From NCBI RefSeq assembly GCF_054482595.1, contig NZ_CM137008.1: a DNA stretch of 64,000 bases; one strand, given 5' to 3'. Under the pieces are notes generated by a model. That model searched no databases. It was not told the DNA's origin and was given only the letters and a program-made list of their open reading frames with translations. The position numbers were made by a program, and so were the translations under genes. Of this stretch, positions 37,212-42,616 are shown piece after piece (the stretch's first letter is position 1; every line of letters begins with the position of its first letter).

Positions 37212-37534
37212 TCACCTTAACCTACTCATACGAAGCGGACGAGGATAAAATCCTTTCATTTTCCGTTCGCTTCATTATTTTATTTTCTTTCCAATGCCCA
37301 TTCAAATTAAAAATATAATTCTGCCATAATTTCCTGAACACAGATGTAATTACATTGCCACCTCTCATACTTCCATATGACTAGTCGTCCTATTGGGGCG
37401 TGATAGATGTATTAATTTCCAAATATGCAAACATTCTGATACAGTCCCAAAAAGAAAATTATTACCAACCCAGACAATCAGCAAATAAATTAATAACAAT
37501 TGAATTATAATCAACACGAATACAAGAGATTAAC

Positions 37535-39385
37535 ATGGCAACAATAATCCCAACAATCAGTAGCTGCAACGATAAAATTACTGCCGGAGAGAAAAGGCTG
37601 GCAAGAATTCTGGAAAGAGGACTAGGCGAAGAGTGCTGCTGTTGGTATGACATTCCCACGGGTGATAAGCATCTTCACCCAGATTTTATGATACTTTCGC
37701 CAGAAAAAGGCATTATTTTTCTCGAGGTAAAAGATTGGTTTATTACAAAAATAAAAAAAGCCAACAAGTCTAATGTTTTGTATGAGACACAAAATGGCAT
37801 TCAATCTTTAAAGAATCCGATAGAACAAGTTAGGCGATATGCTTTCGAAGCTGTAAACCAGTTAAAAAAAGACCCCCTATTGTGCCAACAGGAAGATCGT
37901 TACAATGGCAATCTTCTTTTCCCCTATGGATATGGCGTCTACTTTAGTAATATTACACGAGAAGCATTAAATAATAAATTTACTCAAGAAGAGCTGCTCG
38001 GGATCTTCCCATCAGATCTTATCATCTGCAAAGACGAACTAAATGAATTCATGTCAAAAGGGGATGTTTCATCCAAAATACATTCGTTGATTAAATATGA
38101 CTTCAAATGTCATGCTACACAAGAACAGTTGAACAGGATTAGATGGCACTTATACCCCGATGTCAGAATAGAAAGGGAAAAGAGAAGTAAAAACTGTGAT
38201 GAATTTAGTGTCGATGCACCAACCATCATTTCTATCCTGGATACTCAACAGGAACAACTTGCCAGAAGTATGAGAGACGGCCACCGAATAATTCATGGTG
38301 TTGCAGGTTCAGGTAAGACATTGATCCTCTATCATCGCTGTCAGGAATTAGCGAAAAAAAATGACAGCGAAAAGCCAATACTTGTCATTTGCTACAATAT
38401 TACTTTAGCCAAAAAACTTCGGTCGATGTTCATCAATCATCCCTTTGAAGAGAAAATAAAGGTTAATAATTTTCATGCTTGGTGTTTCCAACAAATTAAA
38501 AAAAACAAGATCACCATTCCAGAAGGGGATAATATTTTTGAAAATATGGAGCAAGCGTTGACTGATGGTTTCAACACAGGAAAAATAAAACCAGAACAAT
38601 ACAGCGCTGTATTAATTGATGAAGGACATGATTTTAAGCCCGAATGGTTAAAAATCCTGGCAAAAATGACTGACTCTCAGGACGAGAATTTGCTATTTCT
38701 TTATGATGATGCTCAGTCAATTTATCAAAAAAAGAAAGCATTAGACTTTACACTGTCCAGCGTGGATATTAAAGCGACAGGACGCACAACTATTCTTAAT
38801 ATAAATTATAGAAACACACAACAAATTCTACACTTTGCCAGTTGCATTGCATTTAATTATCTTAATAGCCATATCGATAGTTCTTTAACCTATCATAAAC
38901 CTGCTGCGGGAGGAATGAATGGCGATTATCCCAAGCTTGAACATTTCGACACACAGGACGAAGAAATAGCAAGAGCAGTCAAATGGATTACAGAGCAAAA
39001 TGAACAAGGGATTCCGTGGTCTGAAATTGCTATACTTAGTCCTTCAACTCACATCCTTTCTAACTCTCTAAGTTCTGTACTTGAATCGAAAAATATCCCC
39101 TTTAATCTTATTGTAAGCTCTGCAGATAAAAAGTCCTGGACGCCAGAACAAGAGCGTATTTCTGTTATGCCATTACCCAGCAGCAAAGGACTTGAGTTTC
39201 ACTCAGTTGTCATTATTGATGCAGCGAGAACACGGGATAATAGTGATGATTTGAGTGAGGATATAAAGAGACTCTATGTAGGTTTTACCCGAGCACGTTG
39301 CAATCTCTTGGTAACCTTGCACGGTGAAGGTGCGTTAAATGAGCATCTACTAAGAACCTATAAGCAAAGCCCACAATATATGTAA
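37535..39385 (+). CDS. NERD-domain nuclease fused to UvrD-like SF1 helicase (candidate single-gene defense protein)
   Basis: 616-aa ORF. N-terminal NERD segment (AGEKRLARILERGL...HPDFMILSPEKGIIFLEVKDW); helicase motif I GVAGSGKT, motif II VLIDEGHDF, motifs V/VI LPSSKGLEFHSVVII and LYVGFTRARCNLLV; AT-rich gene next to yjiA. Confidence 0.75.
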   Translation: MATIIPTISSCNDKITAGEKRLARILERGLGEECCCWYDIPTGDKHLHPDFMILSPEKGIIFLEVKDWFITKIKKANKSNVLYETQNGIQSLKNPIEQVRRYAFEAVNQLKKDPLLCQQEDRYNGNLLFPYGYGVYFSNITREALNNKFTQEELLGIFPSDLIICKDELNEFMSKGDVSSKIHSLIKYDFKCHATQEQLNRIRWHLYPDVRIEREKRSKNCDEFSVDAPTIISILDTQQEQLARSMRDGHRIIHGVAGSGKTLILYHRCQELAKKNDSEKPILVICYNITLAKKLRSMFINHPFEEKIKVNNFHAWCFQQIKKNKITIPEGDNIFENMEQALTDGFNTGKIKPEQYSAVLIDEGHDFKPEWLKILAKMTDSQDENLLFLYDDAQSIYQKKKALDFTLSSVDIKATGRTTILNINYRNTQQILHFASCIAFNYLNSHIDSSLTYHKPAAGGMNGDYPKLEHFDTQDEEIARAVKWITEQNEQGIPWSEIAILSPSTHILSNSLSSVLESKNIPFNLIVSSADKKSWTPEQERISVMPLPSSKGLEFHSVVIIDAARTRDNSDDLSEDIKRLYVGFTRARCNLLVTLHGEGALNEHLLRTYKQSPQYM

Positions 39386-39626
39386 AAATGATAAATTATC
39401 TCCATAACGCCCGGTAACGCTGTACCGGGCGTTATGAATGCATATCTAAGATATTAGTCACGCATGATAGCCGCCACCAAAAACACCATCATCTCCCTCG
39501 CCTCTTTGCGGTGATAAAAGCGTACCATTTTGCTGTTAAATTCCAGCGTTTTAGCCGCTGGAATTAACAAGATCAAACTTCCGGCAACGAAGATTCAGTT
39601 ATTACAAATAATTACTGGAAAAAGAG

Positions 39627-40380: not shown

Positions 40381-40426
40381 TACATTGACCCGGTAGCACC
40401 AGTGCTACCGGGTATTATTCGCCGCG

Positions 40427-42520
40427 TTATACCAACGCGCTCTCCATCTGTTTTTCAAATGCCTGACGAATTAATCCCATAATGTAAGGAAGTTGTGCGA
40501 GGTCGCTGAAACAAATTTCCACATCACCATTGCCCCATCGCCCAACATTTGTCACATCTTTGGCAATACCTTTCGGATCGACCAGTTCATGAAACTGCAT
40601 ATTAAGCGACAATCGCAGTCGGCTTTTTTGCGGCACAACATCAACAAAATTCGTTTCAGCTTTAAACGCAATATATAGCTTCAATACTTCCTGCGTGATC
40701 CCTGCGTCCAGGCGCATAACTTCATCGCGAAGATGATCGAATAACACCCGGCTATGCGAACCATCAGCAAGAAAAGGATAATCACTCAGGCTGTAACTGG
40801 TTTTGTTTTCAGGCTGCCCCCGATAAACAGCTAAAACCTCTTCAGAAAGAGAAGGCGCTTGCCAGACCTGAATCGCGAGATCGGCCAGACGATCGGCTCG
40901 GGCGTGAATGGCGGCTTCATCCCATTTTTCGCACTGTCCAAGACCGATATTCAAATAGAGCGGGCTATGCTTAAAGCCGTCTTCAATATCGCGTTTTTCC
41001 GCGAAAGGTCTGTCACTGTAGCGGGAGTTATAGCGCGTTAATGTGAGATTCCCCAACGTATGCAACAGTTCTTTATGAATGCGTTGCCAGTCACTTCCCA
41101 GCTCTTCACGCCATTTAGCCGACAAATTTTCGTTCTGCGGCATAATATGCTCAATCGTAAACTCTTCCACGCGCTCTCTGCGTTTATCGTTTTCCAGTCG
41201 TCGTAACCAGTAGCTGCGACTACGGAAGTTATAGAGATCGCGAACTTTTAATTCCCGTTTAAATTCATCATCGTTGGGGAAACGACGATATGAAGGTAGA
41301 TTCAAAAAATGTACCTGAATACTTTCCAGATAATTTTCTTTATTAATAACTTTATAAAAAGTGGCAAATGTCTTGTTCAAAGAATTTGTCGGAATTGCAC
41401 ATACTGCACGGCGGAAAACATAAGATTCAATTAAACGAATTATGCTCAGAAAATCTTCGTGAGACAAAACGCCATTTTTATAGTCATGATAAAGCGCCAG
41501 TAAGAAAGGATACGCCACATCGACCTTTAACTCGCGCAAATCCTGAAAAGCCGTAGCAAGCGATTTGTCACTTTCTTTTCCCAATGCCATTGCACAGTAA
41601 TACTCCGCGTAGATATGAATATCTTCAACCAGCCGATCTACGCCTTTTTCAGCAACACTCTGGCTGCGGGCATGGAGTTTAAATGCCTCATAGACTTCAT
41701 CTGTCCGAGGGATCTCCCCCGTTTTTACCGTCAGATAATGACGCATAAAACTGTCAAAATATTCGCTGTAACCTTGCTGACCAAAGGCGACTTCCATTGG
41801 ACGCCAGTGATCTTCATACAATCGGGTTTGATGCTCTGGTTCGAGGCCCATCAGAATAAAATTGCGCACCAGATCGGCCTGACTTAACGCCTTACCGGTG
41901 GAGTTCATACTTTCAAAAATCAGTTGCGGATTATCCTGACCACGATTAAGCGCCACATCGACAATTAATAACTTTGCTAACCCACGACATAAGGGGATCA
42001 AGTCATCACCGAGTTTGGCAATTTGTTCATCAAAGAAAGTAAAGTTTTCCATTATTCGATGGGAATAGTTTTCTGGCATTGGTCTTTGTTTTATTAACGC
42101 CAGTAAACTGTCTTTATCAGTCTCGGTCAGCAGTAATTTAAAACCTTTCTCGCCGGACTCATAAGGATTGAGCAAATAATAATTACGCAATTTCATTGCC
42201 GAAAAGCCATCAAAAACTTCGTCTTCGCCAAGATGGCGCGATAAAGCCTCAATCAGCAACATTGCGGTCGTCAGCCGCTGCTGACCATCAATGACCAGCA
42301 ACGGAGAAATACCAGAAACCTGATACAATCCCTGCTCTATATAAACAACCGAACCGATAAAATGCGCTGATATATCGTCACGCTTTCCTGCACGAATGAT
42401 GTCGTCCCAAAGTTGCCGACATTGTTGTTCTGTCCATGAATAAGTCCGTTGATAAATGGGAATAACAAACTGCTGCGAACGTTTTAAAAAATCGAGTAAG
42501 CGAGCTTCTGTAGCTTTCAT
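40427..42520 (-). CDS. DUF262-DUF1524 fusion protein, GmrSD-like type IV (modification-dependent) restriction endonuclease
   Basis: 697-aa ORF. N-terminal DUF262/ParB-like motifs (IPIYQRTYSW, DGQQRLTT); C-terminal DUF1524 His-Me finger (EHIMPQN...GNLTLT); AT-rich. Confidence 0.75.
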   Translation of the reverse strand: MKATEARLLDFLKRSQQFVIPIYQRTYSWTEQQCRQLWDDIIRAGKRDDISAHFIGSVVYIEQGLYQVSGISPLLVIDGQQRLTTAMLLIEALSRHLGEDEVFDGFSAMKLRNYYLLNPYESGEKGFKLLLTETDKDSLLALIKQRPMPENYSHRIMENFTFFDEQIAKLGDDLIPLCRGLAKLLIVDVALNRGQDNPQLIFESMNSTGKALSQADLVRNFILMGLEPEHQTRLYEDHWRPMEVAFGQQGYSEYFDSFMRHYLTVKTGEIPRTDEVYEAFKLHARSQSVAEKGVDRLVEDIHIYAEYYCAMALGKESDKSLATAFQDLRELKVDVAYPFLLALYHDYKNGVLSHEDFLSIIRLIESYVFRRAVCAIPTNSLNKTFATFYKVINKENYLESIQVHFLNLPSYRRFPNDDEFKRELKVRDLYNFRSRSYWLRRLENDKRRERVEEFTIEHIMPQNENLSAKWREELGSDWQRIHKELLHTLGNLTLTRYNSRYSDRPFAEKRDIEDGFKHSPLYLNIGLGQCEKWDEAAIHARADRLADLAIQVWQAPSLSEEVLAVYRGQPENKTSYSLSDYPFLADGSHSRVLFDHLRDEVMRLDAGITQEVLKLYIAFKAETNFVDVVPQKSRLRLSLNMQFHELVDPKGIAKDVTNVGRWGNGDVEICFSDLAQLPYIMGLIRQAFEKQMESALV

Positions 42521-42616
42521 TCTGACGTCTTTCCGTGAAACGATGATTTCGCAATAATAACCACTTCCTTGTGGAGGTTATAGAGAAATCCTGTTTATCC
42601 GCGACGAACATACCCC

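Follow-up and report, generated by a model that had tools for sequence, protein, structure and literature searches.

The immigration control region (ICR) of enterobacterial chromosomes, listed as hotspot #36 in a 2025 EcoSal review, was documented there as a site where the restriction genes located between yjiA and yjiS/yjiN vary in the manner of cassettes, with GmrSD enzymes present in 12% of enterobacterial ICRs (PMC12707154). GmrSD homologues at the ICR had already been listed in 2015, including EcSMS35_4888 of Escherichia coli SMS-3-5 (PMC4437046, Fig. 8), and the ICR homologue APECO1_2080 (733 amino acids) had only about 24% identity to Eco94GmrSD (PMC4437046). The HEC-06 family had experimental support that included mutants of its DGQQR and EH motifs (10.1101/2024.01.29.577857), and according to Silas et al. 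2025 the largest cluster of enterobacterial GmrSD proteins was CLS_001 (PMC12373910). Here we analysed a 64,000-nucleotide stretch of contig NZ_CM137008.1 (RefSeq assembly GCF_054482595.1), hereafter the window, in which the DNA between yjiA and yjiS carried a gene that fuses a NERD nuclease with a UvrD-like superfamily 1 (SF1) helicase, the symE/symR module and a gene for a GmrSD-family enzyme. The locus was real, but as a variant of an already known defence island it was ordinary. Taken as a whole, it was probably an allele of the ICR in which two independent defence cassettes lay around symE/symR and were swapped by recombination in the flanks.

The breakpoints were determined by BLASTN of the window DNA with K-12 MG1655 as the reference. 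The left match (window 33658-37211, 97.9%) stopped exactly at the yjiA stop codon, and the right match (42613-46542, 94.7%) restarted four bases past the yjiS stop; the neighbouring genes were btsT-yjiX-yjiA on the left side and yjiS-yjiR-rpn on the right side. The site was therefore the yjiA/yjiS immigration control region, as a preliminary description of this DNA had proposed, and its coordinates and gene list were also correct apart from the right breakpoint, which fell at 42612/42613 and not at 42616. At this site K-12 contained mrr, hsdRMS, symE, mcrBC, yjiV and yjiT. No DNA match to the K-12 genes mrr, hsdR, hsdM, hsdS, mcrB, mcrC, yjiV or yjiT was found in the interval by BLASTN, in agreement with the proposed replacement of the K-12 restriction genes. 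The sole K-12 match inside the interval (39908-40376, 92.5%) consisted of symE, its promoter and symR. Moreover, symE/symR was present in every locus variant examined, K-12 included, except SK1144. Thus, this module belonged to the framework of the site rather than to its non-K-12 cargo, among which symE had been counted earlier.

The DNA of the interval was foreign by composition. Its AT-rich character was evident from the guanine-plus-cytosine (GC) content, which was 0.375 in the left and 0.437 in the right cassette versus 0.55 and 0.54 in the flanks, and from the GC content at third codon positions (GC3), which was 0.34 for the helicase gene and 0.42 for the GmrSD gene versus 0.67 for yjiA. 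Similar to the described hotspot #36, the window allele had the anchors yjiA and yjiS (with yjiN as the extended anchor), the same symE framework and no mobility genes. In contrast to it, this allele was without a complete type I system, Mrr or McrBC, and its left slot held the NERD-helicase gene, which was not in the content table given for the ICR (PMC12707154). There was no open reading frame (ORF) for an integrase or transposase within 37212-42612, no insertion sequence (IS) elements were found at the junctions, and a repeat search for att-like, direct or inverted boundary repeats found only short ones at chance level. These negative results fitted the account of this region in PMC12707154, in which genes are exchanged through homologous recombination within conserved flanking sequences.

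The distribution of the two cassettes supported their independence. We sampled 5426 complete E. coli genomes and scored presence at a coverage of at least 80%. The flanks matched in 5394 of these genomes; 1360 had the GmrSD cassette, 100 had the helicase cassette (always chromosomal), and 40 had the whole 6.4-kb arrangement. These 40 genomes came from different lineages, fell into identity classes of 100%, 97% and 96%, and included SMS-3-5, which carried the same arrangement as the window. Six contents of the ICR were seen, namely those of K-12, ATCC 25922, L1PEag1/E2348/69, EDL933/536, SK1144 and the window allele. L1PEag1 and the enteropathogenic E. coli (EPEC) strain E2348/69 possessed the helicase, the relic and symE followed directly by yjiS, with no GmrSD gene. 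The reverse was found in O157:H7 EDL933 and the uropathogenic E. coli (UPEC) strain 536, which had the same GmrSD gene without the helicase and, on the left, a type IB hsdRMS system and a second DUF262 gene. Thus, what had been described as one cassette was two independent ones, located on either side of the conserved symE framework. Where the GmrSD cassette was absent, symE abutted mcrB (K-12) or yjiS (ATCC 25922), and in SK1144 a 76%-identical GmrSD gene occupied a different position in a locus without symE. IS insertions disrupted both the helicase and the GmrSD genes in some strains (THO-010, LR-62-2). The second DUF262/HNH gene of EDL933 (locus L006, 787-2438) and 536 (locus L007, 834-2486) was situated between yjiA and the type IB hsdR and had 27-39% identity to the N-terminus of the window GmrSD, so that some ICR alleles held two GmrSD-like genes.

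The right cassette encoded a single-chain enzyme with the two motifs that characterize the GmrSD family, in which we included Eco94GmrSD/CT596 GmrSD, BrxU, HEC-06 and CLS_001, that is, DGQQR in DUF262 and (E/D)HxxP in DUF1524. According to Pfam, the GmrSD_N/DUF262 domain, a ParB-like nucleoside triphosphatase (NTPase), spanned residues 9-222 (E 9e-35) with DGQQR in 'VIDGQQRLTT', and the GmrSD_C/DUF1524 His-Me finger nuclease spanned residues 415-547 (E 2e-26) with EHIMP in 'TIEHIMPQN'. It differed from these enzymes by an extra C-terminal DUF5655 with a YdhG/YjbR-like fold. Four PADLOC profiles matched the protein end to end, and that of HEC-06 (226 bits) scored it far below the unnamed 'Orf5' profile (741 bits); the other two were mREase_IV (96 bits) and SspE (73 bits). 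A sequence search of solved structures returned the DUF262 protein 9jfl and SspE. Since the CLS_001 members WP_001531297 (the SK1144 protein) and AGB79837 (FGI 57) were 76% and 74% identical to the window GmrSD, the latter very probably belonged to CLS_001 as well. The gene was under purifying selection with its catalytic motifs kept, and the ratio of nonsynonymous to synonymous substitution rates (dN/dS) was 0.05-0.08 between the window and lineages about 4% diverged. This gene was ordinary at the site: it occurred in about a quarter of the sampled genomes, and members of its family had already been published at the ICR (PMC4437046, Fig. 8; PMC12707154). The preliminary description had thus overstated the novelty of the locus.

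In the identical or nearly identical genomes XH990, SMS-3-5 and 536, the Prokaryotic Genome Annotation Pipeline (PGAP) split the GmrSD gene into a coding sequence of 387 amino acids and a 'DUF262 pseudogene'. We rejected the view that the gene was broken, since tblastn found one uninterrupted frame in the window, XH990, SMS-3-5 and 536, and the split was an annotation artefact. A genuine frameshift was found only in O157:H7 EDL933, near codon 267, and among thousands of database sequences the full-length form of 697-700 amino acids predominated. As RefSeq/PGAP systematically splits the intact gene, surveys based on annotation would under-count this enzyme. The DUF262-DUF1524-DUF5655 family had at least 69% identity from Enterobacteriaceae to Kiritimatiella, Psychrobacter, Halomonas and Competibacteraceae. 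This conservation was unusually high and suggested either a recent wide horizontal spread or a very strong constraint, and GmrSD enzymes with the 'double-wing-like' DUF5655 tail may form a subclass of their own for substrate recognition, one that has spread nearly unchanged over distant phyla.

For the left cassette a near analogue was Nhi (nuclease-helicase immunity) of Staphylococcus, which is reportedly a defence system made of a single protein with a nuclease and an SF1 helicase. The predicted product of the window gene was likewise one polypeptide with nuclease and SF1 domains, and its gene, situated among defence genes, apparently stood alone. Pfam assigned NERD to residues 17-110 and UvrD/AAA_19/UvrD_C to residues 236-596. 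Among the PADLOC profiles, C3a187 ('NERD+UvrD') gave the full-length match (469 bits, residues 1-597 aligned with profile positions 1-545 of 559), whereas the GajB, reverse transcriptase-associated helicase, AbiO and Nhi profiles gave weaker and partial ones. The window helicase differed from Nhi in being UvrD-like, and the resemblance between them did not extend to membership over the whole protein sequence. Gabija, in which the UvrD-like GajB is encoded beside the OLD-family nuclease GajA, was also not represented, as the GajB profiles matched the helicase only partially (at most 72 bits) and there was no GajA-like gene in the interval. Judged by its sequence, the helicase belonged neither to Nhi or Gabija nor to any system that has been validated. 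The cluster C3a187 came from a survey of genes beside type III clustered regularly interspaced short palindromic repeat (CRISPR) cassettes, in which it had three occurrences (Shah et al. 2019, PMC6546367). The window helicase had the same domain architecture, but its own neighbours were yjiA and symE, and cas genes were likewise not adjacent to the gene in any of the homologue loci examined.

The residues expected for activity were conserved in this family. Namely, D50, E64 and K66 of the NERD domain, the Walker A motif GSGKT (258-262), DE (362-363) and motifs III, IV, V and VI were invariant in 30 homologues down to 42% identity. The helicase gene was under purifying selection, with a dN/dS of 0.15-0.16 in the comparison described for GmrSD and of 0.01-0.03 for yjiA. 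A confident AlphaFold (AF2) model had a predicted local distance difference test score (pLDDT) of 81 and a fold resembling UvrD, PcrA and Rep; a sequence search of solved structures returned generic UvrD/PcrA matches only. The top Foldseek match of the model was human SLFN11, which we rejected as a homologue because the template modelling (TM) score of 0.43 reflected a generic SF1 resemblance and a similar domain order. A perfect inverted repeat capable of forming a hairpin was located just past the stop codon of the helicase gene. No T-run was found after it on the helicase strand, and the scan listed it only as a terminator-like site of the minus strand.

Homologues of the helicase were uniformly about 615 amino acids long and had the same architecture in Enterobacter, Salmonella, Klebsiella, Yersinia, Vibrio, Photobacterium and further taxa. 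Salmonella Enteritidis had the gene at the same hotspot, where it came after yjiA-brnAT (BrnTA) and was followed by an hsdS fragment. Klebsiella aerogenes also had it at this hotspot, directly after yjiS-yjiR, with yjiR and a glyoxalase gene as its neighbours. The homologue of Vibrio coralliilyticus was set among housekeeping genes. Additionally, relatives at about 40% identity were carried by plasmids of E. coli, Vibrio, Nostoc and Ralstonia, and the family was essentially absent from phage genomes. No conserved partner gene was found in the homologue neighbourhoods examined, and a dependence on CRISPR, reverse transcriptase or GajA was rejected from the ORFs of the window, the profile search and these neighbourhoods. 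We found no anti-phage test of the family in the literature, and the text of a paper on E. coli defence islands (PMC10121019) gave no match to yjiA, helicase or NERD. We concluded that the gene probably encoded a stand-alone nuclease-helicase, distributed like a defence gene and Nhi-like in outline. The more specific proposal, that it was a single-protein immune effector distinct from Nhi, Hna and GajB which repeatedly entered the slot vacated by type I systems at the ICR of Escherichia, Salmonella and Klebsiella, seemed to us about as likely to be right as wrong.

The DNA between the helicase gene and symE contained a readable record of displaced genes. Along 96 bp, the relic of a Fic-family gene was 82% identical to the terminal 3' part of its counterpart at the SK1144 hotspot, and a match in CM143912 reached 89.7%. 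The two pieces of the hsdR relic were 95.6% and 94.2% identical to the hsdR of ATCC 25922 (positions 14001-14067 and 14350-14560 of locus L004); the intervening hsdR sequence, about 282 bp, had been deleted. ATCC 25922 had the order yjiA-brnTA-Mrr-like REase-hsdM-hsdS-hsdR-symE-yjiS, in which a full-length hsdR was directly upstream of symE. This match to the 3' end of an ATCC 25922-type hsdR supported the displacement of a type I system, as the preliminary description had suspected from the HsdR tail, and the donor could be named as the M-S-R-ordered family and not that of K-12. No complete type I system remained in the interval; of hsdR only the last part, about 260 bp, was left, and hsdM and hsdS were absent. 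In identical genomes (XH990) PGAP annotated the relic as a pseudogene. It still contained an ORF of 65 amino acids (39627-39824, plus strand), which corresponded to positions 967-1027 of 1029 in the PADLOC REase_I profile, had its own ATG and the orientation of symE, and was located about 210 bp upstream of it.

The symE/symR module itself closely resembled the SOS-induced type I toxin-antitoxin of K-12. SymE and SymR both scored above the curated thresholds, SymR overlapped the start codon of symE (ATG at 40039) on the opposite strand, and the LexA-type box was conserved. The putative box TACTGATGATATATCCAGAT aligned with the K-12 sequence TACTGATGATATATACAGGT and was kept in 5 loci; the one substitution relative to K-12 (ACAG to CCAG) was common to other non-K-12 strains. 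The differences from K-12 were an amino-acid divergence of SymE of about 5% and the upstream neighbour, which was the hsdR tail and not hsdS. All four elements named in the preliminary description (the helicase, the HsdR tail, symE and the DUF262-DUF1524 enzyme) were thus present and matched defence-family profiles in PADLOC, NCBIfam, Rfam and Pfam. The concern raised there that no ORF might match any defence family was removed by the PADLOC matches of the helicase and the GmrSD protein. The coordinates of all features are collected in the following table.

Table. Features of the yjiA-yjiS interval and its anchors (positions in the window)
Feature	Position	Strand	Basis
yjiA (GTPase), left anchor	36255..37211	+	NCBIfam NF008578, 683 bits, residues 29-346 of a long ORF
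Left cassette: AT-rich leader, NERD-helicase gene, hairpin, Fic-tail relic	37212..39560	+	GC 0.375; no match in K-12
NERD (PD-ExK nuclease) + UvrD-like SF1 helicase, 616 amino acids, intact	37535..39385	+	Pfam, PADLOC
Perfect 14-bp inverted repeat with 6-nt loop (hairpin)	39403..39436		Repeat search, 100% complementary
Relic, 3' end of a Fic-family gene (last ~30 codons)	39454..39548	-	Similarity to the Fic gene of the SK1144 hotspot
hsdR relic, two pieces (39561-39628 and 39614-39824)	39561..39824	+	hsdR of ATCC 25922, C-terminus of PADLOC REase_I
LexA-box-like CTG-N10-CAG, symE promoter	39946..39961	+	20-mer TACTGATGATATATCCAGAT at 39944-39963
SymR antisense antitoxin RNA	39968..40044	-	Rfam RF01809, 91.7 bits (gathering score 61), full model 1-77
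symE (SOS-induced SymE), framework gene	40039..40380	+	NCBIfam NF010128, 225.5 bits vs cut-off 132
Right cassette with the GmrSD gene	40381..42612	-	GC 0.437; absent from K-12 and ATCC 25922
GmrSD-family type IV restriction enzyme, 697 amino acids: DUF262 + DUF1524 + C-terminal DUF5655	40427..42520	-	Pfam, PADLOC
yjiS (DUF1127), right anchor	42617..42781	-	PGAP annotation of the identical genome XH990 mapped onto the window

Three other explanations of the locus were weighed against an ICR allele with two exchangeable defence cassettes. The NERD-helicase might be a helicase of DNA repair or replication restart, that is, a housekeeping accessory of the UvrD/Rep/HelD kind that was at the locus only by chance. 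Its strongest sequence and fold matches outside its own family were indeed UvrD, PcrA, Rep and HelD, PGAP named it '3'-5' exonuclease', and no validated defence model matched it over the full length. However, a housekeeping role was difficult to reconcile with a gene found in so few E. coli genomes, with its foreign composition, with its recurrence on plasmids and, in three genera, at this very defence hotspot, and with its having taken over the place of a type I restriction-modification system. Moreover, its scores against the NCBIfam models of repair helicases were all far under the cut-offs (UvrD 57 vs 965), and we regarded this explanation as unlikely.

It was more improbable still that the helicase, SymE/SymR and GmrSD formed one co-operating system inherited as a unit, the 'layered cassette' of the preliminary description. 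The two cassettes did occur together more often than expected (40 genomes observed vs 25 expected, odds ratio 2.0, p ~0.001, uncorrected for phylogeny), and the entire arrangement was kept at 96-100% identity in different lineages. On the other hand, 60 of the 100 genomes with the helicase had no GmrSD cassette and 1320 of the 1360 with GmrSD had no helicase, helicase homologues stood alone in other contexts, and the genes were on opposite strands with their own hairpins between them. Relatives of GmrSD also worked as single genes, according to 10.1101/2024.01.29.577857 and PMC12373910. The anti-phage activity of the two proteins, their substrates and any 'layered' co-operation between the genes were what we infer and not what we observed. 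The lowest probability, a very slight one, was assigned to decaying debris, in which the segment would consist of non-functional remnants at a recombination hotspot. The hsdR and Fic tails were certainly relics, PGAP presented GmrSD as a fragment and a pseudogene, and both genes bore disruptions in other strains (the IS insertions of THO-010 and LR-62-2 and the EDL933 frameshift). However, both large ORFs of the window were uninterrupted, matched their family profiles end to end and kept all catalytic motifs, the dN/dS values between lineages were 0.05-0.16, and the PGAP split was artefactual.

Several points weighed against reading the locus as a functional defence island. C3a187, the PADLOC model that scored the helicase highest, was a candidate accessory family of type III CRISPR and not a validated stand-alone system, and the PADLOC Nhi profile matched only the helicase core (residues 235-435, E 4.6e-9). 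The EDL933 frameshift implied that GmrSD was dispensable in some lineages, and K-12 annotation now describes SymE as a nucleoid-associated protein, which made a defence role of SymE uncertain. In PMC12373910, a CLS_001 representative was assayed against T-even phages, but beyond three named systems only 5 of 12 representatives were active. Additionally, promoter-like sites (10 vs 12.8 expected) and terminator-like sites (4 vs 5.6 expected) were not above chance, and no experiments on either protein of the window allele were found in the literature.

With these reservations, the two-cassette allele of the ICR could have formed and could operate as follows. The ICR itself lacks mobility genes, and its alternative sets of defence genes would be exchanged by recombination in yjiA, symE and yjiS. 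To the left of symE, the low-GC NERD-helicase gene replaced an M-S-R type I system as in ATCC 25922. By analogy with Nhi, the putative stand-alone effector would use its ATP-driven motor on foreign or aberrant DNA, either to load on it or to unwind it, and would cut this DNA with the PD-ExK site. To the right of symE, the single-chain GmrSD-family type IV enzyme stands in place of mcrBC-yjiV-yjiT. Its DUF262 NTPase and DUF1524 His-Me nuclease would cut DNA with modified bases, such as the hydroxymethylcytosine (hmC) or glucosyl-hmC of T-even phages, and the C-terminal DUF5655 may add DNA binding.

The surroundings of the interval also differed from K-12. The yjiS-yjiR-rpn-mdtM flank had an unusually high divergence from K-12 beside the hotspot (94.7% identity vs 97.9% for the btsT-yjiA flank). 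It contained, just outside the hotspot, a gene for an Rpn-family (rpnD-like) recombination-promoting nuclease (44612-45556, minus strand), which was an intact ORF of 314 amino acids, whereas rpnD of K-12 was a pseudogene; this gene might bear on recombination there. On the other side, about 690 bp of AT-rich DNA (GC 0.36-0.40) that K-12 lacks were inserted between tsr and btsT (32837-33657). The ORF of this insertion (33006-33395, plus strand, 129 amino acids) had no NCBIfam or PADLOC match; the insertion was found in 362 of the 5426 genomes and was annotated as 'hypothetical protein'.

Conceptually the locus added little, and it was best seen as a textbook case of one chromosomal hotspot that shuffles defence genes by recombination in its flanks. 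Both the site with its cassette-like behaviour and the GmrSD enzyme found there were already published, and the NERD-UvrD helicase was the only under-explored element. The family of this helicase was compact and widespread, and its presence in well-studied strains such as EPEC E2348/69 and SMS-3-5 made it easy to test. Finally, the GmrSD variant of the window was present at the ICR of a quarter of the complete E. coli genomes, a frequency to be considered when the host range of T-even therapeutic phages is predicted.

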